The notes under the pieces were generated by a model. That model saw only the letters and a list, made by a program, of their open reading frames with translations. It did not search any database and had not been told where the DNA came from. 64,000 nucleotides of DNA from Candidatus Nanohaloarchaea archaeon (GTDB lineage: Archaea > Nanohalarchaeota > Nanosalinia > Nanosalinales > Nanosalinaceae): the NCBI GenBank assembly GCA_041640035.1, contig JBEQBC010000002.1:105580-169579 (forward strand). The letters are read 5' to 3'. Positions 1,872-43,809 of the stretch are shown piece by piece. The translations under genes and the position numbers were made by a program. Each line of letters begins with the position of its first letter. Position 1 is the stretch's first letter.

Positions 1872-4055
1872 CTAGACTGCACCCATCTCACCCACCATTC
1901 CACCGAACATCAGAGACACTATAAGTAAAGTCATGGTATAGAACATGAGTCCGGCAATCATAACTTTTCCGATAAACATATTTCTGTAAGTCTCGTTCTC
2001 TCCCTTCGTAATCTTCATGTAGAAGGTTCCAAGCAGGTATAGAAGTTGAATTAAATACAACCCTACAACGAGCTGCAGAAGTTCTGGCGGGATAGCCTCA
2101 TCCAGATTTCCTAGGATCCCTCCGAAGCTGGATACACCTCCGCCTCCAGGAGCTCCGGCAGGGCCGCCACCTGAACCTATACCCGCGTTAGCTTCTTGGA
2201 AGGATGATGATAATCCAAACATAGAGGTTATGATTGTCTGGCTCATTCCTACCGCTACTCCTGATACAACTGGTGCAAGCATGTATGCAAGCATCTGGAT
2301 AGTGGTTGTAGTATCTTCCATCAAATCGTTAAGCTTTTCCTGCGTCTCATGGATGTTCTCCAGATATCTCGAAATCGTAAGCATCGCCTGAGAGGCCATC
2401 TTATTTCCTTTCTCTGATGAACGGATTATAGCCCGCATTACTGTCGATATTAGCTGGCTTGGGAACTCATGTACTGCTCCGTACTGATCATCAAACAGAG
2501 ATTCCTCAAATGTCATACCCATTCTGTGAATATTTGCTGATGCCGAGTTGAACAACTGAGAGATCTCCATATCTGATGTTGCCTCCGCTGCATCCTCCAA
2601 TGCGACTTCTATAGGTGTTCCACCCGATATCTTGTTTCCAAGCTGGAACAGTGCTGTTGGGAACTGTTTCTCGATGCTATGGATTTCCTCTTCAGCTGCC
2701 TTACGCTCCATGTTCCCAAGTACTTTAGAAACCCCTATCCCAAGCCCCAAACCTAGTGTTATTGAAACACTCCTGAGCAACATCGGTAGCGGCGCCAGAG
2801 AACCATCCGATACAAAAATACCTGGAACAGCTGCAGGATCAATATCCGAGACAGGATAGAAAGCCGGGAATGCCAGATATCCTAGGAACCCATAGGCTGA
2901 TATAACCATGAATATTGCTGCACCTATCATCCAAGTGGGTATCTCCAGTTCAGAGTCGATAAGTTCTATCCTGTAGATCCCACGCTCAGGAAGCCGTTCC
3001 TCATCAGTTGAAGAGCTTGATGATACCGTTGGAGGTCGGGAGCTAAGCACTCTCTGCATGAATACATACAGGGAGGCAGGAAGCATGATGTTAAATAGTA
3101 TAATTAGATGCATAGGCGTTATAGCGTCCCCCATAAAGACCGAGATAAGTGGGAGCATAATCATCGCAAGTACAGGCAGCATAGCTCCTAATGCGTTCAG
3201 TATCATGACCGGCGTTTTCAACCCCTGAGCGTAGTGCTTCATCTCTTCCCGGGTTCCATCCAGAATGGTATCAATAGCGTCCTGAAGCATATCATTCCTT
3301 CTTTCCGCGTTTGGTTCATTCATTGAGCCTTTGATCAGGTTCAGAGACTGCAGGAAGTCGTCATTGTAGTCTTTCCATTTCTTGGTGTAGTTCTCGAGAG
3401 ATGTCTCTACATTTGAGTATTCTCCAACCTCTACATTCCATAGCACCTCTTTCAGATCGTCTGAGATAGGTCCATCTAAGTTCAGTGCCGCAAAACGTAG
3501 AGCTCCTTCCAAATTTGGACTCGAACGCATGTATACAACCATGTAGAGTATTGCAAGGATCATCTCTCCGCTGCTCCGGATCACCTTGTTTTTGGCCTCG
3601 AATTTAGGCTTGTAGAAGATGAATACTGCTACGCCAAACGGAATAATAGCCGATATCGCCATCAATGAAACAGGTATAATAGCTCCAAGTAGCATGTTTA
3701 CCGCAAATACGAACATCCAGGTAAGAAAACCTATTATTGCAGCTCCTACAGTTCCTGAGAGAACCTGACCTGGCGTAATCTGCCATCCAAGAAGATTGAT
3801 AGCTGGATTCAGTTTATTAATTGTGCTTTCGTCTGCTTCAAGATTGAGGTAGCCTGCCATTCTGTGGCAGAACTTTTCATATTTAGATATCTGTCGGGCG
3901 TCTTTCTCTTCTTCCTTAAATTCCTTGTATCTTTTTGAGTACAGGCTGTGACGGTTGTTGTCGTATGGAGGGAGTTGGAGATCTTTGTCTATATCGTTGA
4001 TGATGTTCTCTATATCTTCTTTTTCTTCTTCTCCTATTCCCTCTTCATCTCTCAA
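1872..4055 (-). CDS. FlaJ/TadC/PilC-type polytopic membrane platform protein of a type IV pilus-like machine
   Basis: 727 aa. An acidic cytoplasmic N-terminus is followed by two blocks of TM helices separated by soluble helical segments (duplicated T2SS-F-like layout). TTG start 7 nt after the ATPase stop, preceded by an AGGTG SD. Adjacent to the secretion ATPase. Confidence 0.65.
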   Translation of the reverse strand: MRDEEGIGEEEKEDIENIINDIDKDLQLPPYDNNRHSLYSKRYKEFKEEEKDARQISKYEKFCHRMAGYLNLEADESTINKLNPAINLLGWQITPGQVLSGTVGAAIIGFLTWMFVFAVNMLLGAIIPVSLMAISAIIPFGVAVFIFYKPKFEAKNKVIRSSGEMILAILYMVVYMRSSPNLEGALRFAALNLDGPISDDLKEVLWNVEVGEYSNVETSLENYTKKWKDYNDDFLQSLNLIKGSMNEPNAERRNDMLQDAIDTILDGTREEMKHYAQGLKTPVMILNALGAMLPVLAMIMLPLISVFMGDAITPMHLIILFNIMLPASLYVFMQRVLSSRPPTVSSSSSTDEERLPERGIYRIELIDSELEIPTWMIGAAIFMVISAYGFLGYLAFPAFYPVSDIDPAAVPGIFVSDGSLAPLPMLLRSVSITLGLGLGIGVSKVLGNMERKAAEEEIHSIEKQFPTALFQLGNKISGGTPIEVALEDAAEATSDMEISQLFNSASANIHRMGMTFEESLFDDQYGAVHEFPSQLISTVMRAIIRSSEKGNKMASQAMLTISRYLENIHETQEKLNDLMEDTTTTIQMLAYMLAPVVSGVAVGMSQTIITSMFGLSSSFQEANAGIGSGGGPAGAPGGGGVSSFGGILGNLDEAIPPELLQLVVGLYLIQLLYLLGTFYMKITKGENETYRNMFIGKVMIAGLMFYTMTLLIVSLMFGGMVGEMGAV

Positions 4056-4061
4056 TCCGTA

Positions 4062-6326
4062 TTACACCTGTCTTTCCAGCCATTCTTCCCATCGAGCCAT
4101 TATTCTCTCGGTTTCTTGCCCGCCATATTCTTTCCTTACGTCTTCAGCTATAGTATGGTACTTCTGATTTGCTTTTACAACGAACTCTGCTTCCAGAAGC
4201 TCATCGTTACCTGTTTCATCTGCTTTATCAGCGATTTTCTGCTTCATGTCTTTTCTCAGTTGGATATTGTCCCATACTGCTTCCCAGTTGTTCTTCCATT
4301 CACGGATATTGGAGGCGATACGGTTCAGGATAAGTGATTCGCCGTTCAGAAGTGTATCCGTTGGAACGAGTTCGTCCTTGTTGCTGTCATAACGCATAAG
4401 TTCAACGAAGGCATTCTCTTCTTGTGGGTCGTCTGTCCAGGATTTTCTGACCTCTGTGATACCTGTTACTCTTCTATATGTTTCCAGGCCGTCAGGGCTT
4501 CTAATCTTGTTGACTGATACGATGATATCTGTAGCTTTGAAAGAAGTTTTCGGTACATTTAGGTCGTTGACCACTCGGTCGAATACGGAATATGCGTCTT
4601 CTCCGTGGATTGTTCCTCCAACGAAGTTCGCGACTGCTCCTACACGCATAGCCTCGTAAAGTGCCTGAGCTTCATCCGATCTTACTTCTCCGATGACAAG
4701 TGCTGAGTCTCCTAACCGGAGTGATGTTCTGATTGCTTCATCTGCTCCTAACTCACTTTCGTTCTGAGTAATTACGGACTGTGATTTCATCCTTTCGATG
4801 TTGTATCCGAGGTCTTTCATCTGCGGAATCGGTAGCTCTAGAGTGTCCTCTACTGTGACTATACGGTGGTTTTTCATGATTTCGAGCATGGATGCTGATA
4901 GTATGGATGTTTTTCCTGCTCCTCTTGTCCCTGCGAATAGTACGGACCGGTTTCCGTCGACGATGAATGATAGTAGTGCGGCTCCGAGTGCATTGATCAT
5001 GCCGTTGTTGACGAATAATGGTAGTGTCCATGCTCTTGATCGGTGTCGTCGGAAAGCGAACGCTAATCCTTCGGGTGATAGGCTTTCCTGGATGACTGCT
5101 ACTCGTGCTCGTCCTCCTTCGACCTCTGTCTCAGTGTCCAGTACCGGGTTGGCTTCGTCGAGTGGTCGGCCTGACTGTATTCTGAACCGGGTTGCCCATG
5201 ACTCTGCCTCGTCTCTTGTCGGTATCAGGTTGGTTTTGCATTCCTCGTAGTCCTGATGGCTGATGTACATCGGTGAGTCTCCGATCGGGGAGTTGATGTA
5301 GACATCCTGCACTTTCGGGTCAGAAAGCAGAAGTTCGAGTACTCCGAGTCCGGAGGTGTACCTGTTTAGTATGCTTGTTAGTTCTTCGAGTTCTTCCATC
5401 TCTAGGTTCATGTCCATTTGTGCGGCGATATCTCTGAGCATGTCTTTTCCGATGTTCTCGAATACATCACGCATTCTTTCCGGCTGAGCGAACTCTCCGG
5501 ACTCCGGTTTATGTGACGCCATATATCTCCTGGCTGCGTCAAGCAGCTTGTACTTCTCTTCAGAAAGGTTGAACTCCGGCGGATCGATGTGGTATACTGG
5601 CCGGGTTTTTCCTGGTACGCGGTAGATGGTTACTTCTACATCGTTCCGAGCTTCGTACCGGTCGATCTCCTCTCCTTTTTCGGGAGGGAGGCTCATGAAC
5701 TTCGTAAGCATGAAGTTAGGCCGAACCAGAGGGTGGAAGAACTCTCTGTATACATCCCTGTCCCCTACATGGAATCCTGTAATGTACTCTTGTGCCTGAT
5801 CGATTATCTGGCAATCTTCTATTCTTTCTCTTATAGGCTTGAGAACATCCTGTACGAAGTATTTGTTGCATCTCTTCTGCTGTGGGTAACCTTCCTTCAT
5901 TTTCTGTTTCATGTGGCGCTCTTTTCTCTTTATCTTGACATATGCGCCGACAGGATCTCTTCTAAGCCTGTCTAGCACTATTTTCTGTACTTCAGGTAGT
6001 TCTTCTGAGTAGAGTTCCTGGCATTTCTTTCTGTCGATGTCCTGTGACAGGTAGCCCTGATTGGCTATGTCTTCTATGGCTGTTGAGATTTCTTTCAATA
6101 GTTCTATCTGTTCTTCGGTGTATTCGTAGTCTCTGGATTCTGATAGTACTACGGAGCTGGCTCCTGGTACTTCTTCTAATATGTCTACTACTCTTCCCAT
6201 TACTTCGGGGTAGTCCTCTATTGAGGCTCCGTAGACTGATCCCAAGGTGTTCACTTCTATTGTGCCGGATTCTTCGTCGTATTCGTAGTCGAAGATGTCT
6301 TTGTCTGAAGGGGGCATACCAAGCAT
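4062..6326 (-). CDS. Type II/IV secretion-family ATPase (FlaI/PilB/VirB11-like) with a long N-terminal extension
   Basis: Walker A FAGTRGAGKTS, Walker B region LGDSALVIGEVRSDEA, then GGTIHGED. 754 aa. Confidence 0.85.
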   Translation of the reverse strand: MLGMPPSDKDIFDYEYDEESGTIEVNTLGSVYGASIEDYPEVMGRVVDILEEVPGASSVVLSESRDYEYTEEQIELLKEISTAIEDIANQGYLSQDIDRKKCQELYSEELPEVQKIVLDRLRRDPVGAYVKIKRKERHMKQKMKEGYPQQKRCNKYFVQDVLKPIRERIEDCQIIDQAQEYITGFHVGDRDVYREFFHPLVRPNFMLTKFMSLPPEKGEEIDRYEARNDVEVTIYRVPGKTRPVYHIDPPEFNLSEEKYKLLDAARRYMASHKPESGEFAQPERMRDVFENIGKDMLRDIAAQMDMNLEMEELEELTSILNRYTSGLGVLELLLSDPKVQDVYINSPIGDSPMYISHQDYEECKTNLIPTRDEAESWATRFRIQSGRPLDEANPVLDTETEVEGGRARVAVIQESLSPEGLAFAFRRHRSRAWTLPLFVNNGMINALGAALLSFIVDGNRSVLFAGTRGAGKTSILSASMLEIMKNHRIVTVEDTLELPIPQMKDLGYNIERMKSQSVITQNESELGADEAIRTSLRLGDSALVIGEVRSDEAQALYEAMRVGAVANFVGGTIHGEDAYSVFDRVVNDLNVPKTSFKATDIIVSVNKIRSPDGLETYRRVTGITEVRKSWTDDPQEENAFVELMRYDSNKDELVPTDTLLNGESLILNRIASNIREWKNNWEAVWDNIQLRKDMKQKIADKADETGNDELLEAEFVVKANQKYHTIAEDVRKEYGGQETERIMARWEEWLERQV

Positions 6327-6359: not shown

Positions 6360-6770
6360 ATGCCAGATCAAGACCTGATCAACCAGATTATTAACCGGGT
6401 GAACGATTTCAACCGGCGGATGAGAGACCTGGAGGAGAAAATCCGGAACCTGACTGCCCGAGTTAATACTCTTGACGATACGATTATGAACAAGACCAAG
6501 ACCCTGAATAATGACTTACAGGAACTGGATGACGAGATAGGAGAGCTCAGCGATCGTATCGCAAACCTAGAGGTCGATGTAAAGGAAATCAACCGTGAAA
6601 AGCGTAAGTATGTGAGCCAGCAGGAACTTGAGGAGATGGAGAACTACATGGATCTCATGAACCCTGTGAATTCTAATTTCACGACTGAGAAGCAGGTTGA
6701 TCAGAAGATCGAGAACAATTCACTAAGCCAAGAGGAAGTTGAGAAACTGATTGAGCAGAAGATGAATTAA
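6360..6770 (+). CDS. Acidic coiled-coil protein, unknown function
   Basis: 136 aa, heptad-rich (DLEEKIRNLTARVNTLDD..., IANLEVDVKEINREK). Divergent from the ATPase gene, with only 33 nt between the two start codons. Confidence 0.5.
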   Translation: MPDQDLINQIINRVNDFNRRMRDLEEKIRNLTARVNTLDDTIMNKTKTLNNDLQELDDEIGELSDRIANLEVDVKEINREKRKYVSQQELEEMENYMDLMNPVNSNFTTEKQVDQKIENNSLSQEEVEKLIEQKMN

Positions 6771-6829: not shown

Positions 6830-7753
6830 ATGAAATTTGAACTTTTTGGACGCCTCGGCGACGACAACGAGACCGGAGATCAGCAAGCAGAAGACTCAGG
6901 AGGATTTAATGCCGGATACGATGACGAAGGAGGCGACTTCCAGACAGGCGGAGACCTAGATAGAACGGTTCAGAACCTGTTCGACCAGGGTTACTCGGAA
7001 GACGAGATCAAGAATGAACTGCAGGGACAATACTCTGCGACAGAAGTTTCTCAGGCAATTAATCGCGTTGTAACTTCTAACGCCACAGGAAACGCCAATA
7101 ATAGTGGTGGCAGCGGAAATAGTGATGGACCTGAGCCTATGACTCCTTATCAGGGAGATGAAGATGCGGTCAGTCCTATGGACGAAGGTTATGACGGAGA
7201 TGACCAAAATGGTGGTGGAGGCGGAAACAGTATGGAAAACAATATGAACCAGAACAACAATCAGAATACTATGATGCAAGGGCAGCAAAACCAGCAGTCT
7301 CAACAGCAGCAACAGCAACCTCTGCAGTCAGGAGGTCAGAGCCAGAAAGGAAGCGCTAACTCTGGTAATGTAGATCCTGCTGTAGAAGAACTTATTGAAA
7401 CTATAATCGCAGAGAACTTCGAGAAGGTTGAAGCAGAGTTCCATAATGTTTACGACGAACTTGATACCTTCGCAGATGAAATCGAAGACCTGAAGCAAAG
7501 AGTGCACGATCTTGAGGTCAGAGATGACGAGGATCAACAGCAGTTCGTTCAGAAGATCGACGAGGTTGAAGAACATATCGATGAGTACGAGTCCCGTATC
7601 GGAGGACTTGAGAAAGCCTTCCAGCAGGTACTTCCATCACTCGTTGACAATGTAAGAGAGCTTACAGACCTTGTCCAAGATCTGAAGGATGAAGGAGATG
7701 TGAGCGAAGGAGACTTCGAGGACATGGACATGGAAAGTCTCAAGAACGAATAA
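6830..7753 (+). CDS. Acidic protein with a Q/N-rich low-complexity core and a C-terminal coiled coil, unknown function
   Basis: 307 aa. Gly/Asp-rich N-terminus, the stretch NNMNQNNNQNTMMQGQQNQQSQQQQQQPLQ, then a heptad-rich tail (EIEDLKQRVHDLEVRDDEDQQQFVQKIDEVEEHIDEYESRIGGLEKA). Confidence 0.5.
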   Translation: MKFELFGRLGDDNETGDQQAEDSGGFNAGYDDEGGDFQTGGDLDRTVQNLFDQGYSEDEIKNELQGQYSATEVSQAINRVVTSNATGNANNSGGSGNSDGPEPMTPYQGDEDAVSPMDEGYDGDDQNGGGGGNSMENNMNQNNNQNTMMQGQQNQQSQQQQQQPLQSGGQSQKGSANSGNVDPAVEELIETIIAENFEKVEAEFHNVYDELDTFADEIEDLKQRVHDLEVRDDEDQQQFVQKIDEVEEHIDEYESRIGGLEKAFQQVLPSLVDNVRELTDLVQDLKDEGDVSEGDFEDMDMESLKNE

Positions 7754-7817
7754 GAATTCCTTCTCGTTTTCTATTTCCCAAATTTTTCTCTTTCTAAACA
7801 ATTCTTTCTAAATAAAA

Positions 7818-7846
7818 TCTAGTTGAGAGAAGAAACTAGAGTTTTT
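7818..7846. terminator. Hairpin plus T-run between convergent genes (candidate bidirectional terminator)
   Basis: tctagtt (7818-7824) pairs with aactaga (7834-7840) around a 9-nt loop, followed by gttttt. The reverse strand also ends in a T-run. Confidence 0.3.
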
Positions 7847-7847
7847 C

Positions 7848-8360
7848 CTATTCTGACTGTCCTGCTGTCAGAGCCACGAGAGCTACTATCATCAGCAGTA
7901 TAAGTATTGGCATGACTACTTCCTCGAATATCTTGCTCCAGTTCTCTATGTCCGGAATGATGTTGGGTATTCCGAAGAAGTTAGATATTATAGCAAGTAG
8001 TGCTACTACAAATATTCCTGCACCAAGAATGAGAGGTAGGGATCTATCATTATCCTGAAGGTTCTCCAAGTCATATCCTGCTACTCCGAGCACGATCATC
8101 AGGCCGATTACCGCGAAGATGCCGAAAGTAGCTGCTGCAACTACATTAGTCAGAAGTCCTGCCGGAATAAACATGTAAGCTCCTCCACCAGCCATGAAAG
8201 CTATAGCTAGAGATATCGAGCCATTGACAAACTCATCTTCACTTATGAAATGGTATTTCTCTAGCACACCGTAACTTACTGCTAGTACGAGTAACCATGG
8301 GAAGAAGAATCTGAATATCTGCATTTCTGCCATGGTCTGGATTATCTGCTCGAAAACCAT
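7848..8360 (-). CDS. Polytopic membrane protein, paralogue of 8368..8979
   Basis: 170 aa. IIQTMAEMQIFRFFFPWLLVLAVSYGVLEK aligns with LLEIMAENGFFSGLLPFVVAYVLFFLTLKR. VIGLMIVLGVAGYDL aligns with VIGLLGLLVVLAFIGLDI. Confidence 0.6.
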   Translation of the reverse strand: MVFEQIIQTMAEMQIFRFFFPWLLVLAVSYGVLEKYHFISEDEFVNGSISLAIAFMAGGGAYMFIPAGLLTNVVAAATFGIFAVIGLMIVLGVAGYDLENLQDNDRSLPLILGAGIFVVALLAIISNFFGIPNIIPDIENWSKIFEEVVMPILILLMIVALVALTAGQSE

Positions 8361-8367
8361 GACTGGT

Positions 8368-8979
8368 TTATCCTCCTCCGGAGCCGCCGGCTAGTTCATC
8401 GAACAGTTTTCCAGGCGAGAAACTACTACCGGCGTCAGGATCTGACAGTGTCCAGTAGATCAGCCCTGCTACTACCAGTACCCATATTAGTCCTGAATCA
8501 ACTGTGAAGTTGATGAACTGTTCCAAGCCCTCACTGTTGATGTTATCCGGTATGAATATTCTTCCTCCTCCTGTTACGAAGAAGGCCAGTACTACGATAC
8601 CAGTTAGTATCAATCCGTAGATACCTCTGGACTCACTGTCTCCAGTGCCGATATCTAGGCCGATGAATGCTAGTACGACCAGTAACCCGAGCAATCCTAT
8701 TACGGATACTGCTATTGCTCCAAGGTACTCTACGAAGAAAGTCTGGTAGGCTGGGTTCCTTACGAGGAACTGTGCTACGAAGAATGCGAATACTACTGAA
8801 AGCGTCGCTGCGAACTTGTTGTCTCCGTCCTCTTCCTCGAATAGAGGTATTCGTTTGAGTGTGAGGAAGAAGAGTACATATGCCACTACGAAGGGCAGGA
8901 GACCTGAGAAGAATCCGTTCTCCGCCATTATTTCTAGGAGGTTGTTGAACCCTCCTGCACCTGCGTCGTGGCTAGTCAC
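8368..8979 (-). CDS. Polytopic membrane protein, paralogue of 7848..8360, with a Gly-rich C-terminus (GGSGGG)
   Basis: 203 aa with a GTG start. The TM pattern matches the downstream paralogue. Confidence 0.6.
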   Translation of the reverse strand: MTSHDAGAGGFNNLLEIMAENGFFSGLLPFVVAYVLFFLTLKRIPLFEEEDGDNKFAATLSVVFAFFVAQFLVRNPAYQTFFVEYLGAIAVSVIGLLGLLVVLAFIGLDIGTGDSESRGIYGLILTGIVVLAFFVTGGGRIFIPDNINSEGLEQFINFTVDSGLIWVLVVAGLIYWTLSDPDAGSSFSPGKLFDELAGGSGGG

Positions 8980-8985
8980 TTTCTA

Positions 8986-9243
8986 TTATTCACCTTGTTG
9001 ATCTAGGTAGTGGCTTACTTTTCGGTTTAGTAGCCATAGTTCTCTACCTATGATCATTAGTCCAAGCATGACGATCCATGGCTGGATGTCTCTTCCGAAT
9101 GATACCATGGTTGCTTCCTGTGATGAGTAGAATGCTGTCCATAGAGCTACCGCGATCGCTCCGAATGATAGGATTACGATTACGAGTTCGTCTAGGATGT
9201 TTTCTACATTGTATAGGTAGTTTCGGAATCTTTTGGAGTCCAT
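8986..9243 (-). CDS. Small two-TM membrane protein, unknown function
   Basis: 85 aa with two hydrophobic helices (LVIVILSFGAIAVALWTAF and WIVMLGLMIIG). Tightly packed in the operon. Confidence 0.5.
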   Translation of the reverse strand: MDSKRFRNYLYNVENILDELVIVILSFGAIAVALWTAFYSSQEATMVSFGRDIQPWIVMLGLMIIGRELWLLNRKVSHYLDQQGE

Positions 9244-9246
9244 AGT

Positions 9247-9387
9247 TTAGAAACCTCCTCCGCCCATGCCGCCCATTCCTGAGCGCATTCCTAAGAGTTT
9301 TGCGATTACAAATCCTGCTACTAGGCCCACTACGGCGGCTTCTGGTTCAGCCATCAGGCCGTTCATTATTTGGTCAGGTAATGCCAT
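9247..9387 (-). CDS. 46-aa single-TM Gly-zipper protein not in the ORF track; paralogue of the core of 14185..14454
   Basis: My own translation gives MALPDQIMNGLMAEPEAAVVGLVAGFVIAKLLGMRSGMGGMGGGGF. The AAVVGLVAGFVI helix and Gly-rich tail match AAIVGLIVGFVI...GGGGDMGGGG of the 89-aa protein. The stop lies 3 nt before the next gene's start. Confidence 0.45.
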   Translation of the reverse strand: MALPDQIMNGLMAEPEAAVVGLVAGFVIAKLLGMRSGMGGMGGGGF

Positions 9388-9438
9388 TGTTGTTTTAAGC
9401 CTCTGATAAAGTTCATTATGAACTACTTGTTTAAATAA

Positions 9439-10485
9439 TTAAACCGATGTTGCCTTCTGCGTTGTTTCTGATTTCGCTGGAGTTTCCGGGGTTTGAGGTG
9501 TTTCTCTGGTCTGCTGTACTTCCAGATGCTCCATATATCTATTTTCTGCTGGAGCGTATTCTTGGTCTTCTGATCTGGCTGCTATGTAGTCGGAGATCTC
9601 TTGGTTTACATCTACTTCTTCAGAGTACATTTCATTGATAGCAGTACCTGGGTCAGAATTAACTTCTAAGCCGACTATCTCGCCATCGGGAGTCTTCATG
9701 TAATCGAATGCGGCTACCTCTAAGCCTTCAGTTGCCTGTATTGCTGCATCGATTTCATAGTCAAATATATCTCCCGGATCTGTGTATTCTCCGCCGTTAG
9801 CTATATTGTTAGCAATTCCTTCTCCATCTTCACGGGCAGCTATCTCTAGCACGGTGGCATCTTCTCCATCACCTAGCACTAGTGCACGACAGTCTTTGAA
9901 GCCTTCTTCATGCGGTACAGATTCTTCTAACCTGTATTCTTCTCTATCAAATTCCTCAAGATATTCTTCCAAGGTCTCGGATTCTTCTATTTCCGTGATT
10001 CCGTTCCCAAAAGAGCTTCTCGCTGGTTTTGCGATAACCTGATCGTCTTCAAGCACCTCAAAAGCTCCTTCTTCAGAATAGCTTTCAGCCATTCGGACAT
10101 TTTGGAGGTTACTAAATGATTCTTCCAGCATTTCAGAAGTCCTGTTCTTATCGTTATGGAACCAAGACATCAAAGGATCTTGTATAAAATCTATATCCTG
10201 GTCTTCTACTGCCGCAGAAACCTGCTCAGCTATTTCTCTGCTTTCTTCATCATCCATTCCTGAAGTAAATTTTTTGTGGCGATAGAAAACTGTTTGATCA
10301 TCTATTTTTTCTAATTCGTCTACAGATGATACATCGGTTACATCGTACCCCTGTTCATCCAGTTCTTCAACAGTCTTTTTCCTGGTCGGTGTATCTACTT
10401 CGCCTGCGTACAGTATATCTGCCTCTTCAACATCTGTTTCTCTTATTATATCATGTACGGTTCTGTCGAAGAGCCATCCAAACAT
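9439..10485 (-). CDS. ATP-grasp ligase, RimK/alpha-L-glutamate-ligase-like
   Basis: The C-terminal half reads QVIAKPARSSFGNGI ... DCRALVLGDG..TVLEIAARED..IANNIANGGEY ... AAFDYMKTPDGEIVGLEVNSDPG. This follows the RimK-type ATP-grasp pattern (KP..GS.G.G., D.R..V.G, N...GG, GvD......V.EVN..PG). Confidence 0.7.
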   Translation of the reverse strand: MFGWLFDRTVHDIIRETDVEEADILYAGEVDTPTRKKTVEELDEQGYDVTDVSSVDELEKIDDQTVFYRHKKFTSGMDDEESREIAEQVSAAVEDQDIDFIQDPLMSWFHNDKNRTSEMLEESFSNLQNVRMAESYSEEGAFEVLEDDQVIAKPARSSFGNGITEIEESETLEEYLEEFDREEYRLEESVPHEEGFKDCRALVLGDGEDATVLEIAAREDGEGIANNIANGGEYTDPGDIFDYEIDAAIQATEGLEVAAFDYMKTPDGEIVGLEVNSDPGTAINEMYSEEVDVNQEISDYIAARSEDQEYAPAENRYMEHLEVQQTRETPQTPETPAKSETTQKATSV

Positions 10486-10519
10486 AGAAACAGATTTGTT
10501 ACATGAAAGTTATAAAATT

Positions 10520-12130
10520 TTAGAAGGAGTCCTTCCAGTTCTCGAGACCCTGAATAGCGTCATCTATCGCTGCGATCAAGTCCTGATCATCATCAATCTC
10601 GTGGTTGTTTGCGTTATGAAGAGCTCTGAGATCGTCTCTCAGATCTGCGAGTTCGTTCGGTATATGAGTATTCACCAGTTCGTTTACATCACTGTCCGGG
10701 AATTCAGGGTTGTTGCATCCTGTATCCGTGTTCAGGTCGTCGATGATATCACGGATATCTGAAAGGTATGCATGTATATCACCGGAGTTGGAGTGGTTCT
10801 GTATGTCTCCAATACGGGATTCGATTTCGGTCTTCTCTGAATTGCTTATCTGCAGCTCGTCCTTGAGTACAGATTTCAAGTCCTGTAACTGTCTCTTTAT
10901 AGTTCCTTTGCGGTTCTTGAGTTGTTCAAGAGAGTTCTCCAAGGCTTCTTCGTGCTCTTCCATTCTACGGGCTCTGTTGAAAAGTCCTTCGTTGTCCAGT
11001 TCCTGTGCATAATCTTCTATCCTCTGTTCGTAGTCCTCAACCTGATCTACATCCTGCATCAGAAGGTTGATGCCTTTCAGTGATTTTGTGACGGTTTCGG
11101 CTTCAGCTATCAGTTTGTTTAGTTCATCGTCCAGGTTTGAGGTTACATGTTCCTCTTTCGTTTCTATCCTCTCGACTGCATCTATTATTGTTTCAAGCTC
11201 CTCCTTTGCATCAATCAAGCCGAATTCTTGATACCGGGATGGAAGGTCCATCGTACCGAGGTCAGTGTTCTCCAACAGTCCTCCTCCGCCTAGAATCATG
11301 TCCGGATGCAGGTTGTCTAGGTTTGGGTTGGATCCGCTGGAGGAGTTGTTTTTGAGCTTGGTGAGTTTTCCACGCATATGGTTAACTCCGGCTGTCAGGT
11401 ACTTTATCCGGTTATTTACATTTTCGTAATCTCTGCTTGCGTTCTTAACACCGTTGATAGCATCGTTGATGTGATCTATCTCCGAGCTCAGGTCTTTGGC
11501 TGCGTTGTTCATCGCTCCTTCTATATGGTCATCTGAGTCGTCTATTTCTTCTACTATCGATTCGATTTCTGCTTCTGTCTGTTCAGGTTGGTCCTGTACA
11601 TTTCCGTCACCGACATTTCTTAGTCTCTGACCTGCTTCCCTTGCTTCCTCTATACCGTAGTTCAGGGCCTTGCCTGTTTTTCCTGCTGTCCAAGCTGCAC
11701 TTGCTGCTCCACCTCCTACTACTGCAATCAGGAGGGCGATTACTCCGAAGAAGAGTGCTCCTACTAGCATCATCTGGATGTCCCAGACGAATCCCATAGC
11801 GTGACCGGTGCCTAAAATAGACAACACTGTCAGAAGCGCAAGTACCGCCAGAAGATTCTTTTTATCGTCATCCTGAACCCCTGAAGATTGAAGGTTGAAT
11901 AGCTCTTCTATCTCGAGTTTGACGACGATTTTCTTCATGATCATGTAGACAGAGAGCCAGATCAAGCCAAAGGTAGCAGCAAGGCCTAGATTGTGAACCA
12001 TATCTCCCTGTGTAAGTCCAAGTGCACTTATTATGCCGGTAATATCTGTTAGAGAAGTGCTTCCGCCATGATTTGCTGCTGCTAAAGGTGTTGCTAAAAG
12101 GGTCAAAGTTGAAAGTAGTTTTTTCTTCAT
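10520..12130 (-). CDS. Signal peptide / NHGGS / 3-TM membrane module fused to a ~380-aa acidic coiled coil; tandem paralogue of 12130..13719
   Basis: 536 aa. MKKKLLSTLTLLATPLAAANHGGS, then three TM helices, then continuous heptad-rich sequence. The start overlaps the upstream stop by 1 nt (TAATG). Confidence 0.7.
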   Translation of the reverse strand: MKKKLLSTLTLLATPLAAANHGGSTSLTDITGIISALGLTQGDMVHNLGLAATFGLIWLSVYMIMKKIVVKLEIEELFNLQSSGVQDDDKKNLLAVLALLTVLSILGTGHAMGFVWDIQMMLVGALFFGVIALLIAVVGGGAASAAWTAGKTGKALNYGIEEAREAGQRLRNVGDGNVQDQPEQTEAEIESIVEEIDDSDDHIEGAMNNAAKDLSSEIDHINDAINGVKNASRDYENVNNRIKYLTAGVNHMRGKLTKLKNNSSSGSNPNLDNLHPDMILGGGGLLENTDLGTMDLPSRYQEFGLIDAKEELETIIDAVERIETKEEHVTSNLDDELNKLIAEAETVTKSLKGINLLMQDVDQVEDYEQRIEDYAQELDNEGLFNRARRMEEHEEALENSLEQLKNRKGTIKRQLQDLKSVLKDELQISNSEKTEIESRIGDIQNHSNSGDIHAYLSDIRDIIDDLNTDTGCNNPEFPDSDVNELVNTHIPNELADLRDDLRALHNANNHEIDDDQDLIAAIDDAIQGLENWKDSF

Positions 12131-13719
12131 TATAGATCAGCGAATTTGTTCAGTAGTCGTTCTTCGGCTGCTTCTTCCTGTTCGTTCTGCTGTTCGATTT
12201 TCTCTAGGTGCTCTCCAATCTTGTTGAGATTGTCTTGCATGTTCTCCATTCTTCTCCAGGCTTGCGGTGCATAATCACTGTCTCCGATGTTTTCCAAGAC
12301 ATTCTTCTCGAGAGCTTCTATCTGATTGAGTATTCTGCCGTCTTCTTTTACGAGCGTTTGAAGCTGCTGAATCTCTTCCTCTTCAAGTTTTATTTCATTC
12401 TTGATTAGGTCTTTGGCTCTCTCGATGAGTTCTTCCAGTCTCTGTTCTTCGCTCATTAGTTCTTGGTAGTAGCTCTTCATCTGCTCGATTTCTTTCTCTT
12501 CCTGTTCAGCTTCTTTGTATACTTTCTCGCTCCCCATCTCTTGAGAGATGCTTTCGAGATATTCATCTAGCTGTTCAGCCTCGCCTATCTCCTGTTTAAT
12601 CCTGCTGAGAAGATTCTGAAGGACGATAAATTCTTCAAGCTTGTTGACTAGGATATGGACCTCATCTTCCATTTCTTCCTCTTCTTTGGTTTCCAGAGAT
12701 TCGATAAGTTTGATATCCTCTTGGACTCCCTTTAGTTCTTCATCTATTGTCTTGAGGCCTTTGAAGCTGTCTACAAACCCTCCTGGCGCTACCTGGTTTT
12801 CTGTTGCTCCTTTTCCTAACCCTGAAGCGGAAAGATTGTTCTCATGCGAGTTCTCCAACGAACTATTAGCTTTGTTTAGTTCATTATTGACATCATCCAG
12901 TCTTGCTTTAATATCCTTGACGCCTTTCTCTTCTTTCTGATCCTGCTTAAGAATCCTTTGTGCGTCCTCAATAGCCTGCTCGAACTCATCCAGATCCTTC
13001 TTCATCATTCCGGAAAGAGTTTTTTCTGATGATTCCACAAGTTCGATTACTTTCTCTACATCATGGGCGGCTTGATCTGATTCTTGCTCGGGATCTTCAC
13101 TTTGACCCGAAGTCACATCTTCTTCTTCATGTTCTGCTCTTGTTGCTACATCCTGAGCCTGAGTGGTCCGGTCTCTAACCGCTTCAATATCCTGATTATC
13201 GTACTCATCGCTGCCTGCGTTAGCCCCTTCATCAAGTTCATTAAGTCCCCATGCACCTGCTTTGGCAGCTTTACCGGTGGAGAACATGAAGAGACCTGCT
13301 CCACCACCTAAAACCAGAATTATCAGAGAAGCTACCAAGAAGCCTACTGCTAACAGTAGTGTTTGTTGAATAGTATCTATTGTGAATCCGAGGTAGGTGT
13401 GTGATGCACCTGCTGCAGAAACAACTATTAGAAGAGATAGTACTGCTCCTAGGTTTCTGCCGTCATCTCCGTATGTGCCACCTCCCATGTTGAAGAGGTC
13501 TTCGAGTTCGAATCGCATGATCAGTTTCTTGGTTATCATGTAGACTGTGAACCAGATCAGTGCGAAGGTTGCTGCGGAGATTGCGATCTGTCTCCAGTTA
13601 TCTACAGGGAATGGAAAGTTGGAGATTAGACCGATTAGTCCTCCGGACCCTCCGTGGTTCGCGGTTGCGATTGATGTGAAAGCCAGTAAAAGTGAGGAGA
13701 AGATGGCTTTTTTGTTCAT
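12130..13719 (-). CDS. Signal peptide / NHGGS / 3-TM membrane module fused to a ~370-aa acidic coiled coil; tandem paralogue of 10520..12130
   Basis: 529 aa. MNKKAIFSSLLLAFTSIATANHGGSGG. The N-terminal ~165 aa are collinear with the downstream paralogue (IWFTVYMITKKLIMRFELEDLFN vs IWLSVYMIMKKIVVKLEIEELFN). Confidence 0.7.
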   Translation of the reverse strand: MNKKAIFSSLLLAFTSIATANHGGSGGLIGLISNFPFPVDNWRQIAISAATFALIWFTVYMITKKLIMRFELEDLFNMGGGTYGDDGRNLGAVLSLLIVVSAAGASHTYLGFTIDTIQQTLLLAVGFLVASLIILVLGGGAGLFMFSTGKAAKAGAWGLNELDEGANAGSDEYDNQDIEAVRDRTTQAQDVATRAEHEEEDVTSGQSEDPEQESDQAAHDVEKVIELVESSEKTLSGMMKKDLDEFEQAIEDAQRILKQDQKEEKGVKDIKARLDDVNNELNKANSSLENSHENNLSASGLGKGATENQVAPGGFVDSFKGLKTIDEELKGVQEDIKLIESLETKEEEEMEDEVHILVNKLEEFIVLQNLLSRIKQEIGEAEQLDEYLESISQEMGSEKVYKEAEQEEKEIEQMKSYYQELMSEEQRLEELIERAKDLIKNEIKLEEEEIQQLQTLVKEDGRILNQIEALEKNVLENIGDSDYAPQAWRRMENMQDNLNKIGEHLEKIEQQNEQEEAAEERLLNKFADL

Positions 13720-13757
13720 GCAGTAGTTAATCCTCTCCTTCTTTAAATTAATTCACC

Positions 13758-14204
13758 TTAGAAGATGGCTTTGAATCCCCAGTAGAGAACTAGGAGTCCT
13801 ACCCCTATGAATATTATGTAGGTGAGTCCTCCGAAGACTACGAATATCAGTTCGTTGATATCTTGGAATAACTGGGTTGGAACCAGCATGAGTGAAACTG
13901 CCAGAGCGATTAGTGTGGCGTACTTGTTTCTCTGTTTTCTGGCCTGTTCTCTTTCACTGTGCCATTCGTCTTCAGCGCTTAATGCGAATTTTAGGGCTTG
14001 TTTCAGTCCGATCTGGAAGATGAAGAATATCAAGAGGAATGGTGCTACAAGTTCCGTTAGTATCTCTGCCTGAGAATCGTAATGCGGTATCTGGAGGTTC
14101 TCGTATGGGTTTCCTCCACCACTGTGAAATGAAGCGGCTGCTGTTGAAACAGTGATAGTTAGTAGTAGAATGATTGAGAGGTATTTAGTCAAAGTCGAAG
14201 TCAT
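13758..14204 (-). CDS. Stand-alone signal peptide / FHSGGG / 3-TM membrane module (no coiled coil)
   Basis: Start moved to the ATG at 14204 (MTSTLTKYLSIILLLTITVSTAAASFHSGGGNP). The longer track ORF would run antisense-free into the upstream gene. Same SP-His-Gly-Gly-3TM layout as the two large paralogues. Confidence 0.6.
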   Translation of the reverse strand: MTSTLTKYLSIILLLTITVSTAAASFHSGGGNPYENLQIPHYDSQAEILTELVAPFLLIFFIFQIGLKQALKFALSAEDEWHSEREQARKQRNKYATLIALAVSLMLVPTQLFQDINELIFVVFGGLTYIIFIGVGLLVLYWGFKAIF

Positions 14205-14454
14205 CGCCGCCACCTCCCATGTCGCCGCCTCCGCCGATATCTCCTCCACCACTTCCGCCGCTACGGGCGTGTTTGATGTAGGCCGGCAGCATATCATCTA
14301 TTACGAAGCCGACTATGAGTCCAACTATTGCGGCTGCTGCGTATTCTCCTGGCAGGGGGAGTAATGAATCAAAGCTTCCTCCTAGCATATCTGCTGCTCC
14401 GACTGCTGCGATAGAGGCTACGGGATAGGCGACGAATTCCCAAGGGTCCTTCAT
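14185..14454 (-). CDS. Small membrane protein with a Gly-zipper helix and a Gly/Asp-rich tail (…GGGGDMGGGGDDFDFD)
   Basis: 89 aa and first gene of the 14454-to-10520 operon. Its core is paralogous to the 46-aa ORF at 9247..9387. Confidence 0.55.
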   Translation of the reverse strand: MKDPWEFVAYPVASIAAVGAADMLGGSFDSLLPLPGEYAAAAIVGLIVGFVIDDMLPAYIKHARSGGSGGGDIGGGGDMGGGGDDFDFD

Positions 14455-14557: not shown

Positions 14558-15733
14558 ATGGGTCTACTTTCAAGCGCTAAGAATCAGATCAACAAAGCGA
14601 AAAAATCTATGGGAAATGTAAAAGACAGGCTAAGCCGTGTAGCAAAAGGCGAGCAAGAGCTTCAAGACGAGATGAACCACTACCAGGATCTTGAAGGACA
14701 GGTGGAGGATGACCTTAGACAGGGAGATAGAAATGTAGCAGATGAAGAAGCTCAGAAACTTGAAAGCGGAGAAATGGAAGCTGCAGAAAGACTGGAAAAC
14801 CTAGATGAGGAGATGCTGGAGATCTTCAAGCAAAACATGAGAGAGGTAAAGTTGACCGCGAATGCCATGAAGGAAAGAGATCAGTTTGAGGAAAGGACTA
14901 GGAAGAAGGTGCGACAGATCGCGAACGAACATAAGGAATTTGATGAGAGACTAAAGCAGGCTTCTCAAAATCTTGAAAGATATATTCAGGAGTCCAAACA
15001 GAATAGCAATAGAATGACTAGAGGTGAAGTCGGTAGAGAAGCACAGACCGACCAAGGTAAGAACTGGCAGGACCTAGAAGAAGAGGCCGAGCACATGAGA
15101 GATAGTATCAACGATGTGGTAAGAAGAGAGAACAACATGCTTGAGCTCTTGAATGCTGAAGAAAAAAGCATGGAAGAATTCAAGGAAGAGTGGGAAGAAA
15201 GCCTTAAAGAAATGAAAAAACTCAGAAACGAGGTTCAAACTTTCTATGGTCAGGAGCAGGAAATGGAGAAAATTGCAGAAGAGCTTGGCGACAGCGATTT
15301 AATGCAGAAAGTAGCTCAGGGAGAGGAAGAAGCTAAACAGATCAAGCAGACATTCAAGGAACTTGATAGCCGTATCGAAGAAATCGAACAGATGCTGGAG
15401 AAGATGGAACAGGAAGACGATTCAATCGTAAAGCACCAGAGTAATGTCACCAATAGAGCTGAAGAAATCCTTGAGATGTCTAAAAACGCTAGAAGGCAAG
15501 TTGCAGAGGTAGAGAACATAGTTGAACGAGATAATTATGAGCATCTGGAGTTCACCAGCCCTGAAAAATGGGAGAAAGAGATAGAGGTCATCAACAAATC
15601 TCTCAACAATGTTGAAGAACTTGTGCAGAAGTTCGAGGAAATCGAAGATCAGGAAATTAAGATTGAGGAACAGGAAGAACAGGTTATTGAAACCGAAGCA
15701 CAGGAGGGCGCTCAGGCAGTCGGAGACGACTAA
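14558..15733 (+). CDS. Soluble E/K-rich coiled-coil protein with an amphipathic N-terminus, unknown function
   Basis: 391 aa and almost entirely heptad-like. N-terminus MGLLSSAKNQINKAKKSMGNVKDRL. AAATTTATATAAG TATA-like box about 25-35 nt upstream. Confidence 0.55.
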   Translation: MGLLSSAKNQINKAKKSMGNVKDRLSRVAKGEQELQDEMNHYQDLEGQVEDDLRQGDRNVADEEAQKLESGEMEAAERLENLDEEMLEIFKQNMREVKLTANAMKERDQFEERTRKKVRQIANEHKEFDERLKQASQNLERYIQESKQNSNRMTRGEVGREAQTDQGKNWQDLEEEAEHMRDSINDVVRRENNMLELLNAEEKSMEEFKEEWEESLKEMKKLRNEVQTFYGQEQEMEKIAEELGDSDLMQKVAQGEEEAKQIKQTFKELDSRIEEIEQMLEKMEQEDDSIVKHQSNVTNRAEEILEMSKNARRQVAEVENIVERDNYEHLEFTSPEKWEKEIEVINKSLNNVEELVQKFEEIEDQEIKIEEQEEQVIETEAQEGAQAVGDD

Positions 15734-20399: not shown

Positions 20400-23300
20400 A
20401 TGAAACTAAACAAAGGCTTGATAATCGCATTCTTCATAATTTTCGCAGCATCAGCTGCAGCTAACCCAGATGTTTCAGTAAACAACCTTCCTGACACCGC
20501 AACACTTCAGGACGGCATAGATATAGAGGGAAGCGCCAGTGGAGAAGATCTCGACGAACTCAGCATCAGAATGAGAGACGCAGGAGACAGCCTCTGGACC
20601 ACATATGTAGAAACCAAAGACTGCCAGGGATTACCGGACTGCAGCGTAAACATAAACGACTACAGCCCAGACAGCACTGGAGAAAAAGAATTCTCAGTAT
20701 ACATAGACAATAATAATGGCGAAGGCAACCACACCGAACCTCAAACCGTAGAGTTTACAGACGGATCCGGAGACGCACAATTAGATGTTTCAATGGATAA
20801 TCTAGATAGCCAGGCTCCGACAGGAGAAGACTTCACATTTGGAGCTAGCGCCAGTGGAGAAAACCTTGACACTCTAGAAATCCAGTATAGAGAGGAAAAT
20901 GGCGACTGGGAAACACTAGGAGCAACCAAAAACTGCGAAGGACTACCAGACTGCTCTATTGACTCAAGAACATATAATACAGATACAGCACAGAATGTAG
21001 ACTTCAAAGCAGTTGTAACCGAGGAGAGCGGAGACACAGACGAAACAAGTATTCAGACAGTAGAATTTACAGAGTCATCAGATGCACAGCTAGAAGTAAC
21101 CATGGACAACCTGGACAGCCAGGCACCAGTAGATGAAGACTTCAACTTTGATGTATCAGCGAGCGGTGAAAACCTTGATACACTGACCGTCGAGTACCGT
21201 GAAGAAGGTGGCAGCTGGGAACCCCTTGACTCCAAGAACTGTGAGGGACTTCCAGACTGCAGCTTCAACCCGGTTACTTACACACCTACAGAAACACAGG
21301 AAGTAGACTTCAAGGCAAACATCGAGGAAGAAAGCGGCGATACTGACGAAACAAGTTCTCAATCAGTTGATTTTGTTTCAGACACAAGGATTGACTCCAA
21401 AAGCATGAACGATCTTCCAGACGAACACTTTACAGATACAGACCTCGAGGTAGAGGGAAGCGTATCTGGAGAGAACCTTGACAGGCTTGAAATACTTGTA
21501 GATGATGGAGACGGGTTCTCAGAATGGGAAGACAAAGACTGCAACGACGCACTGGACTGCTCTATAGACAGAGACTACCAGACCTCTGAAACAGGAGATG
21601 TAGAGTTCAAACTGAAGGCTTACGCCGGAACTCATGAGGAAGAAACTGATGGAAAGACAGTAGAGTTCGTTGAACCACAGATCTCATTAAGCGCAGACTA
21701 CCCTATCAACACCCCGGAAGTAGAATCACCTGTCGATATCAACTGGTTCGTCGATAACCCGGAAGATGTAGATATTGACTACACATTGACGGTAGAGGAT
21801 GAGGACGGCGACCAGGTGTTCTCAGAAGATAATATAGACGAGACAAGCTACAGCCTCGACGAAGACTTGGATGAAGGAACATACACATGGACCGTAGAAG
21901 CAGTAGACAACGACGGAGATGTAAGAGCAGATGCAGACGGATCATTCGACCTACAGAACGCTTACATAGACGGAGTAACGATGAATGATCTGCCGAACCA
22001 GCAGCTTACAGATGAAGACATGGAGATAGAAGCAAGCGCAAGCGGAAGAGACCTCCAAGAACTAATGATAAAACAGAGAGTGCACGGTGACTGGGATACT
22101 TACCATGACAAGGACTGTGAAGGATTGCCTGACTGCAGTATCGATCTACCGGATTACAGCAGAAGTACAGAAGGAGAAGTAGACTACAAAGCAGTAGCAG
22201 TCGCAGGAACAGGAGATGACGAAGAAGAACAGGAATCAGATATACAGACAGTAGAGTTCGTTGACGAAGTTTACCTTGAAGCAGACTTCGACTACCATCC
22301 GGAAAATCCGGAGGTAGATGAAACAGTAGAGTTCGAATCTGAAAGTTCAGGTGATATCGAGGAATGGACCTGGGACTTCGGAGACGGAGAAACAGCCAGC
22401 GGACAGGAGGTAGAACACGAGTTTGATGAGGAGGGCGAATACCCTGTCGAGCTGACAGTCAGCAACGGAGAAAACGAAGATGACGAAACAAAGATCATAG
22501 ATGTAGGAACTGAACCGGATGACTGTGATATAGATGTAGGCGACATCGAATTTGATCCAGAATATGTACAGCCTGGAGAGGAAAGCACTATCAGCATCAC
22601 AGTCGAGAACGACGGCGACAGACAGGACATAGAGGTAGAGTTCCAGGTAAACGACTACAGAGAAAGCCTGGAAGAAGACACACTTGACAGCGGTGAAGAA
22701 GAGGAATACAGCATAACAATCAGCCGCGACTACGACGCAGAGATCATAGCAACAGTAACAACCGAATCCGGAGGAGAAAACCCATGCGGATACCAGGAAT
22801 GGAATCGAATCGATACACTATATGTAAACGAGGAAGGAGAGAACGATGCAACTTTCAACTTCGATGTAGAAGATGAAGACGGAGACTCACTCGAAGATGT
22901 AACAATCAGCGGAGAGAACGGAGACGACTTCACACGGTACACCGACGATGATGGAGAAGCAACTGCAAACATCGAAAGCGGAACATACGATATAACCGCC
23001 TCCAAACCAGGATACGATTCAGAAACAAAGACAAGAACTGTTGACAGCGGAGAAACCAGAAATGTGGATTTCGAACTAGAAAGAGATGAATCAGCAGAAA
23101 ACGAAGGTCAGCTATCCGTACTTGCAGAAGAACTTGACGGAGAGAGACTTGAAGATGTAGAAATCACAGCAGAGAACGGAGATGACGAAACAGAGTACAC
23201 AGATGATGACGGAAGAGCATTCATCTACCTGGAAGAAGGAGATTACACCATCACAGCAGAGAAAGACGGATACCTCGATCAGGCAAGAGATGTAGAGATC

Positions 23301-24545: not shown

Positions 24546-24657
24546 AGTACTTTTTGGGCTGACTTGGGTTTCTATTTATGCCCGAGTAGCCAATTTTTTT
24601 CACTACTACAAATTAATATAAAAGATTTAGTTGAGGTGTTATTATTAGGTGACAATT

Positions 24658-40059: not shown

Positions 40060-40065
40060 TGTATT

Positions 40066-43805: not shown

Positions 43806-43809
43806 CTGT

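Follow-up and report, generated by a model that had tools for sequence, protein, structure and literature searches.

Physical contact with a host cell is a requirement for Nanohaloarchaeota, as for other DPANN archaea, and to our knowledge no molecular apparatus of this contact has been described. In the crenarchaeal archaellum, a scaffold is provided by ArlX, a membrane-anchored cytoplasmic coiled-coil protein of ~250 amino acids (aa) with one N-terminal membrane helix and a coiled coil of ~200 aa, which forms a ring around the motor. Here we describe an array of nine co-oriented open reading frames (ORFs) at 7848-14454 on the minus strand of a 64,000-nucleotide (nt) stretch of DNA from Candidatus Nanohaloarchaea archaeon (GenBank assembly GCA_041640035.1, contig JBEQBC010000002.1, positions 105,580 to 169,579 of the forward strand), the whole of which is referred to as the window. 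The genes, denoted g1 to g9 in reading order, encode proteins of 89, 148, 529, 536, 348, 46, 85, 203 and 170 aa. An earlier note, made from the sequence alone, had put them forward as a candidate envelope or membrane-skeleton system. We tentatively favour another reading, in which they would encode Nanohaloarchaeota-specific parts of a type IV filament machine, namely its membrane base and a cytoplasmic scaffold, ArlX-like in function and not homologous to ArlX.

Two type IV pilus-like loci are conserved in Nanohaloarchaeota and other DPANN archaea, both with coiled-coil proteins (CCPs) encoded beside CpaF and TadC (Hamm et al., 2024; PMC11291902). In the accessible portion of that paper, genes for filament proteins (FlaF, PilA) are shown in Locus 1 only. 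For Ca. Nanohaloarchaeum antarcticus the supplement includes a FlaI-like ATPase with an intein (NAR1_01710, 1249 aa), a 47-aa ORF (NAR1_01650) and a 731-aa protein (NAR1_01640), and NAR1_01690 is named as a Locus 2 CCP. A RimK-like ligase (NAR1_01550, K05844, 489 aa) is numbered a few genes before that locus, and several locus proteins of this organism, CCPs among them, are included in the proteomic data (Hamm et al., 2024). Haloarchaeal pilus loci of subclade 4F carry a cytoplasmic coiled-coil accessory (arCOG07564), pilins and an S-layer-like protein, and lineage-specific membrane proteins have been noted in other archaeal pilus loci (Makarova et al., 2016; PMC4858521). Accessories confined to one lineage are thus already familiar from such machines.

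Two genes beyond the array can be confidently assigned, from profile matches, to a type IV filament motor. The first encodes a 754-aa ATPase of the FlaI/CpaF/GspE type (4062-6326, minus strand), with an N-terminal extension of ~300 aa that has no match. It matches Pfam T2SSE (PF00437; 3.9e-16, 59.1 bits against a cut-off of 24.9) and, in the PDB, 2OAP (afGspE; 1.5e-24), CpaF (2.3e-18) and FlaI (5e-18); against the NCBIfam FlaI model it scores 141 bits (3.8e-41), where the equivalog cut-off is 550. The second encodes a TadC/PilC/FlaJ-type platform of 727 aa (1872-4055, minus strand; Pfam T2SSF PF00482, 27.9 bits against a cut-off of 25.2), and in all loci it stands directly after the ATPase gene. 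Two plus-strand genes lie between the array and the motor. The first, ccB (6830-7753), is convergent with g9 and encodes an acidic, Gln-rich cytoplasmic coiled-coil protein of 307 aa; it is an invariant neighbour, present in all loci at 55-82% identity. The other, ccA (6360-6770), is divergent from the ATPase gene and encodes an acidic coiled-coil protein of 136 aa. Both products have weak, below-cut-off matches to DUF7310 and weak matches to FlaC_arch.

This arrangement is conserved. The order g1-g2-g3-(g4)-(g5)-g6-g7-g8-g9, opposite-strand ccB and ccA, ATPase, platform was found in all 10 distinct loci with enough flanking sequence (L001, L002, L006, L007, L008, L009, L011, L013, L016 and L017), mapped by phmmer together with public gene calls. 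The loci take in close relatives as well as lineages as distant as Ca. Nanosalina sp. VS9-1 and Nanohaloarchaea archaeon SW_7_43_1, in which the g proteins are 20-55% identical to those of the window. Ranked by identity to the window, the ATPase comes first (77-95%), followed by the platform (63-67%), ccA and ccB (55-82%), g7, g9, g1, g6 and g8 (37-82%), g2 (30-70%) and g3 (20-27%). The order has been kept despite local gain and loss of genes, including g4, g5, a gene for a 754-aa soluble coiled-coil protein in Nanosalina and toxin-antitoxin insertions nearby. The paralogues are thus linked rather than scattered in related genomes, and the families are limited to one archaeal lineage, in line with the private family read by the earlier note. 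A free-standing system is not supported by the same comparison, since every sufficiently long locus continues into two coiled-coil genes, the ATPase and the platform, with pilin-like ORFs beyond.

In the window these last ORFs are three in number and lie beyond the platform gene at 104-1903 on the minus strand: 1775-1903 (42 aa), 1581-1796 (71 aa, ...HRKG/VQAVPFIIGLIIALLL) and 104-1579 (491 aa, with an N-terminal hydrophobic anchor). In each, a basic stretch at the N-terminus leads into a hydrophobic helix, as in archaeal prepilins or adhesins, and none has a family match; similar short basic-then-hydrophobic ORFs also follow the platform gene in Nanosalina. They can be regarded as putatively pilin-like. 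No prepilin peptidase (PibD/FlaK/EppA, Peptidase_A24) was recognised among the ORFs scanned in 1-36 kb.

Within the array, all on the minus strand, g1 (14185-14454) encodes a small membrane protein of 89 aa whose helix is of the GxxxG type (GLIVGFVIDDMLPAY) and whose acidic, Gly-rich C-terminal tail ends in DDFDFD. Its product is followed by that of g2 (13758-14204), a 148-aa protein with a signal-peptide-like N-terminus and three membrane helices, which resembles the membrane module of g3 and g4 without the tail. The 529-aa protein g3 (12130-13719) has a signal-peptide-like N-terminus, three membrane helices and an acidic helical tail of ~365 aa with a central break, and the 536-aa g4 (10520-12130) is its paralogue and a lineage-specific duplicate. 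A lineage-specific insertion, g5 (9439-10485), encodes a RimK-type ATP-grasp ligase of 348 aa. Beyond it, g6 (9247-9387) encodes a 46-aa single-helix protein (GLVAGF) with a Gly-rich tail and a C-terminal Phe, a short paralogue-like relative of g1, and g7 (8986-9243) an 85-aa membrane hairpin of two helices with the motif PW..M.ALMIIGRELWL, invariant in the seven orthologues aligned. The last two genes, g8 (8368-8979; 203 aa) and g9 (7848-8360; 170 aa), encode paralogues with five predicted membrane helices each.

All nine ORFs were found as first described, and public gene calls on related contigs, made independently, reproduce their sizes; for g2 the relatives' calls give the 148-aa start and not the longer ORF of 179 aa. 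The sequence has a G+C content of ~44-47% and the encoded proteins are very acidic. Codons that differ only synonymously between the window and L002 far exceed those that change an amino acid (24 against 7 in g1, 53/7 in g2, 5/1 in g6, 16/2 in g7 and 64/17 in g8), so the small ORFs are under purifying selection and are real genes. Orthologues of g1 at 10 loci keep MxDPW, GF(V/M)ID(D/E)..PAY and the DDF..DF tail. The g6 protein is conserved in 8 loci, with Phe as the last residue of every aligned orthologue and Trp in L017, and g7 is 47-82% identical across lineages. The junctions from g1 to g9 measure, in order, -20, +38, -1, +34, +51, +3, +6 and +7 nt. The genes are therefore not generally coupled by overlaps of 1-20 nt, as had been supposed: only g1/g2 (20 nt) and g3/g4 (1 nt) overlap, and the remaining six junctions are gaps of 3-51 nt.

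Hydropathy is consistent with the membrane layouts given above. Basic residues flank the cytoplasmic ends of the g3 and g4 membrane helices, and the predicted topology requires the tail to be cytoplasmic in both possible cases: when the N-terminal hydrophobic segment is removed as a signal peptide, leaving three helices, and when it stays as an anchor in addition to the three. The cytoplasmic, membrane-tethered tails proposed at the outset thus follow in either case. The tails are acidic (27% D+E in g3, 23% in g4) and show heptad periodicity, which collapses mid-tail in a Gly/Asn/Pro-rich stretch at residues ~285-320 of g3 and ~250-300 of g4. Because of this central collapse, each tail is best predicted as two helical segments joined by a hinge, and not as the uninterrupted acidic coiled coil of ~370-380 aa that the earlier note had described. 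Across the family the tails are colinear and weakly conserved, the hinge glycine being among the few well-conserved positions. The mature N-terminus reads AQ(I/V)(T/S)GG and not NHGGS in distant members of the module family, so the NHGGS motif with its His appears local to the lineage of the window. In g1 an invariant Asp stands at the end of the helix. In both g1 and g6 basic residues follow the helix and the Gly-rich tails contain no domain; by the positive-inside rule, both proteins would be oriented N-out/C-in. AlphaFold2 models of g3 residues 1-170 (predicted local distance difference test, pLDDT, 70.3) place helices at 42-69, 90-105, 117-137 and 141-168, and the model of g8 has a pLDDT of 63.7.

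Several of the array proteins are related to one another. g3 and g4 are clear paralogues, matching by BLASTP at 2e-31 with 27% identity, colinear through membrane module and tail, with 45% identity in the module (the first ~170 residues). Profile alignment likewise makes g8 and g9 paralogues (hhalign 96.3%, E value 1.9e-9, 135 columns; reversed-sequence control 0.5%; BLASTP 6e-4). Both pairs had been recognised beforehand. The suggestion that g2 carries the module of the large proteins fares less well. Its layout is that of the N-terminal module of g3 and g4: a start resembling a signal peptide, then a short segment on the outside, helix 1, a basic loop of ~25 aa, helix 2, a short loop and helix 3. 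The two align colinearly. BLAST gives no match between g2 and g3 or g4, and hhalign gives 87% (E 3.9e-6) with 7 g2 sequences and 38.6% (E 3.2e-4) with 59. Because support varies with the g2 alignment used, homology between g2 and the module is plausible and not established. A common GxxxGF helix relates g1 to g6 (hhalign 78%, E 1.8e-5), which is consistent with the proposed paralogy over a match of only 23 columns. The TM-loop-TM (transmembrane helix) resemblance seen between the 148-aa and 203-aa proteins is weak: g2 against g8 gives 21-30% (E 5e-4 to 1e-3), above reversed controls of at most 2.3%, yet such a score does not establish homology.

Apart from g5, the proteins of the array have no family match in Pfam, NCBIfam, PADLOC, PHROGs or PDB sequences, in agreement with the earlier note, which had recognised no known family. 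The exceptions are generic coiled-coil matches to the tails and weak, inconsistent matches in membrane regions (DUF4131, EamA, Tetraspanin). Running each sequence of the g3/g4-module and g8 alignments against Pfam added no family assignment, and the g3/g4 module, searched as a profile against the PDB, gave nothing at E values up to 10, so no confident match places the modules in a well-characterised family. An exhaustive HMMER search of 1.84 billion representative proteins recovered 30 representative clusters for the g3/g4 module; the module is N-terminal in each, and a long tail follows it in most of the full-length members. For the g2 family there are 60 clusters and for the g8 family 28. 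Their named members, from genomes labelled "Candidatus Nanohaloarchaea" or "Candidatus Nanosalina", are all nanohaloarchaeal "hypothetical proteins". A scan of 185,579 species genomes with a g8 pattern built from a 5-sequence alignment found 7 loci, all nanohaloarchaeal though two are filed under bacterial names. As far as these searches reach, the array families are new and restricted to Nanohaloarchaeota.

Two of the loci carry a nanohaloarchaeal array under other labels: L010 (JBLGBK010000001.1), labelled as a metagenome-assembled genome (MAG) of Colwellia polaris, and L012 (JBDGRJ010000033.1), labelled as a Candidatus Paceibacteria MAG. L010 equals L007 gene for gene in coordinates and scores, and both L010 and L012 appear to be mis-binned nanohaloarchaeal contigs. 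No relatives of the array families were found on viral contigs; for this reason, and because there is no PHROG or PADLOC membership beyond generic coiled-coil matches, a viral or defence-island origin was rejected. A ComEC-like DNA channel, suggested by DUF4131 matches in 8 of 19 g8 members, was also rejected, as the matches cover different helices, reach E 0.001 or weaker and stand among many matches to unrelated transporters.

The array is likely to be transcribed as two units, g1-g5 and g6-g9, with a separate ATPase-platform unit. This is plausible because a conserved promoter-like element precedes g6, an AT-rich, near-palindromic sequence of 16 nt (GGTTTAATTATTTAAA; 9430-9445, minus strand) that lies ~45-55 nt upstream of the g6 start and overlaps the g5 stop codon. 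It is unique in the window and identical in L001, L002, L009, L007 and Nanosalina L006, where a different gene precedes g6, and represents a candidate archaeal promoter (BRE/TATA-like, BRE being the B recognition element) for g6-g9. TATA-like boxes are also present ahead of g1, at a distance of 25-38 nt, and ahead of the ATPase start, at ~20-30 nt. Just past the g9 stop codon, an inverted repeat (ctctagtt...aactagat) with a T-run (7800-7847, minus strand), as read from the sequence, likely marks the end of the transcription unit. The two sub-operons split by the ATP-grasp gene, as first proposed, therefore stand as likely transcription units, but the layout with two large genes and an ATP-grasp gene is derived and absent from distant lineages.

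The g5 protein matches the full length of the Pfam RimK domain (PF08443, positions 2-188 of 188) with 34.8 bits (1.6e-8), where the cut-off is 21. It is not a RimK or LysX equivalog (TIGR00768, 45 bits against 143; a second model, 31 against 276 bits) and has no match among PDB sequences. The gene is present in L001-3, L007-10 and L012 and absent from the array in L006, L011, L013, L016 and L017. No second membrane-module gene (g4) was found in L006, L011, L016 or L017, and L013 begins too near the g4 position to judge. Because distant lineages have one such gene and no ATP-grasp gene in the array, comparison of the loci indicates that the g4 duplication and the ATP-grasp insertion are derived, and that the ancestral array had a single membrane-anchored coiled-coil gene. 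In Ca. Nanosalina sp. VS9-1 (L006 7176-9440) the g4 slot is occupied by the 754-aa soluble, acidic coiled-coil protein, which lacks the membrane module. The slot seems to accept different coiled-coil proteins, as the 731-aa protein of Ca. Nanohaloarchaeum antarcticus is numbered just before the 47-aa ORF. An ATP-grasp gene also recurs near this locus in different positions, as g5 in the window and as NAR1_01550 in the accessible antarcticus data. The C-termini of several array proteins are conserved: ...DDF..DF(D) in g1, ...GG(x)F in g6, for the most part ...GE in g7, and frequently ...GG in g8. Such C-termini could be recognition sites for processing or ligation. In the lineage of the window the ATP-grasp enzyme may modify the C-terminus of one component; the conserved C-termini also occur in lineages without the enzyme in the array, and so provide no evidence either way.

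Upstream of the array and divergent from g1, ccU (14558-15733, plus strand) encodes a 391-aa acidic, soluble coiled-coil protein and is a variable neighbour. In L016 (8605-9708) and L017 (8680-9738) the gene just upstream of g1 lies on the same strand and is unlike ccU. Its product starts with two hydrophobic helices, which a linker rich in Gly, Ser and Asn connects to what is probably a globular domain, and it has a coiled coil at the C-terminus. Further away on the plus strand, 20400-24545 encodes a 1381-aa protein with PKD and CarboxypepD_reg/PEGA domains and 24649-26409 a 586-aa protein with several Ig-like domains, both likely surface or S-layer-like proteins; similar PKD proteins flank loci L001, L002, L016 and L017. 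At ~40000-58000 of the window the AT skew is strongly negative on the plus strand (-0.34 to -0.55). Many short ORFs follow one another on the minus strand in the same region, which may be a cluster of ribosomal-protein genes.

In the machine that we tentatively propose, the core would consist of the FlaI/CpaF-type ATPase and the TadC/PilC platform, probably with the downstream pilin-like products. A membrane base around the platform would be made up of the proteins g1, g2, g6, g7 and g8/g9 together with the g3/g4 membrane modules. In an extended state the tails of g3/g4 would span tens of nanometres of cytoplasm, where together with ccA, ccB and ccU they could form a scaffold or cage framing the ATPase, like the ArlX ring of the crenarchaeal archaellum or ArlC/D/E in euryarchaea. 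We infer the physical association with the motor, the scaffold role and the ATP-grasp target. A more ambitious version, which we regard as doubtful, is that the seven membrane families with the anchored and soluble coiled coils make up an undescribed, Nanohaloarchaeota-specific basal body around a pilus-type motor, an organelle for host attachment or exchange.

Several observations weigh against a base and scaffold for the motor. The Pfam, NCBIfam and PDB searches found no homology between the g proteins and known pilus or archaellum accessory proteins. Foldseek searches of the PDB with the AlphaFold2 models of the g3 module and g8 gave a best E value of 1.3 and template modelling (TM) scores <0.3, although these models are too uncertain for a strong negative. 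Two opposite-strand genes part g1-g9 from the ATPase, and the array appears to own its promoters and terminator. Trm5, diphthine synthase-like TP_methylase and DUF357 genes are conserved neighbours too. Such housekeeping genes are equally syntenic, and the linkage could be a product of vertical inheritance in small genomes, which leaves synteny on its own as weak evidence. We keep to a tentative confidence in the proposed base and scaffold because synteny in small, vertically inherited genomes also preserves unrelated neighbours.

Much of this would also fit an autonomous membrane skeleton or envelope scaffold, in which the anchored coiled coils form a lattice beneath the membrane, giving the tiny cell its shape or stiffness, and adjacency to the motor reflects only inherited gene order. 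Separate promoter-like elements and a terminator-like end, the intervening opposite-strand genes and the equal synteny of unrelated housekeeping genes are all expected under it, and the fast evolution of the tails (~20% identity) is as seen in many structural coiled coils. However, in the 10 informative loci the array is never found away from the ATPase and platform despite local rearrangements, seven distinct conserved membrane proteins exceed the needs of a lattice anchor, and most lineages have a single tail gene. We consider such a lattice unlikely.

The restriction of these proteins to obligate symbionts, and the large PKD/Ig-like surface proteins encoded nearby, could instead point to a host-contact conduit. 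Here a channel, or a complex at a fusion site, would be built from the membrane proteins where symbiont and host meet, and the ATPase would power the uptake of host material, as in the conjugation-derived Ced/Ted DNA import systems. Faint matches to T4SS_pilin (E 0.072) and PrgI (E 4.2) go in the same direction, but each occurs in 1 of 19 members and is at noise level. The locus has no VirB4/HerA-type ATPase or other conjugation marker, and the long tails face the symbiont cytoplasm, away from the host, which makes a conduit improbable.

Least well supported is an ion-driven, stator-like unit of the ExbB/TolQ/MotA or ZorA type, in which three-helix, tailed g3/g4 would surround single-helix g1 with its conserved acidic residue and pass force or signal along the tail. 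In having three helices in an N-out, C-in arrangement and a long tail in the cytoplasm, g3/g4 resemble ExbB/TolQ and ZorA, an invariant Asp ends the g1 helix, and PADLOC ZorA models match g4 (best 1.3e-4); these matches are generic, because they are confined to the coiled-coil tail and accompanied by LmuB and JetC. With no MotA_ExbB match at E up to 10 in 19 family members, a blank PDB profile search at the same threshold, no ExbB, MotA or ZorA match by Foldseek (best E 2.2, TM <0.3) and basic residues after the g1/g6 helix that imply N-out/C-in, the opposite of MotB/ExbD, stator membership was rejected, and the highly improbable stator is kept as an analogy only.

Whichever function they serve, the genes described here bring to one DPANN pilus-like locus a membrane-tethered coiled coil and no fewer than seven membrane proteins that are conserved and lineage-specific. 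They provide specific candidates for the DPANN host-contact apparatus, and targets in the cultivated Ca. Nanohaloarchaeum antarcticus and Ca. Nanohalobium constans. Should they prove to belong to the motor base, no archaeal type IV filament machine other than the archaellum would be more elaborate, and the scaffold would be one that evolved independently of ArlX and ArlCDE.

Comparison with described systems brings out both likeness and difference. The likeness to RimK/LysX concerns g5 only, which matches the full-length RimK ATP-grasp domain but lies far below the NCBIfam cut-offs and is encoded outside the conserved array core. As in ZorA of Zorya and in ExbB/TolQ/MotA, a membrane module precedes a coiled-coil tail that extends very far into the cytoplasm, and the gene for a small single-helix partner lies alongside; the membrane module, however, is not homologous, the partner appears to have the opposite orientation, and there is no peptidoglycan-binding or periplasmic domain.

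ArlX (FlaX) and ArlC/D/E offer another parallel, being membrane-anchored (ArlX) or soluble (ArlC/D/E) coiled coils beside a FlaI-type ATPase and a FlaJ-type platform. Unlike ArlX, g3 and g4 have a signal-peptide-like segment, three helices and a tail of ~365 aa, with no sequence similarity detected; Pfam and NCBIfam give no ArlX-type match to the array proteins, in libraries that may hold no ArlX model. The locus also differs from that of the archaellum: a scan of the flanking genes revealed no ArlH, ArlF/G or archaellin, and the ATPase lies far below the FlaI cut-off (141 against 550 bits).

With subclade 4F the locus shares an ATPase and TadC, a cytoplasmic coiled-coil accessory and an S-layer-like protein nearby, and ccA and ccB have their weak DUF7310 matches. 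These matches are below the cut-off in the window, and nothing like g1-g9 is listed for the subclade in the accessible part of the survey (Makarova et al., 2016). The nearest described relative is Locus 2, which likewise has a FlaI/CpaF-type ATPase and a TadC platform flanked by coiled-coil genes in Nanohaloarchaeota, and in which NAR1_01710 is numbered close to NAR1_01690, NAR1_01650 and NAR1_01640 (Hamm et al., 2024). The antarcticus ATPase has an intein, whereas the 754-aa ATPase of the window does not. No description of the seven membrane-protein families or of a membrane-anchored coiled coil was found in the accessible text and supplements of that paper. By gene sizes, order and numbering, and not by sequence comparison, the window locus looks like Locus 2, and ccB is probably one of the CCPs reported by Hamm et al. 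(2024). The wider locus is best seen as an archaeal type IV filament locus with an unusually rich set of lineage-specific accessories, rather than as a categorically new system.

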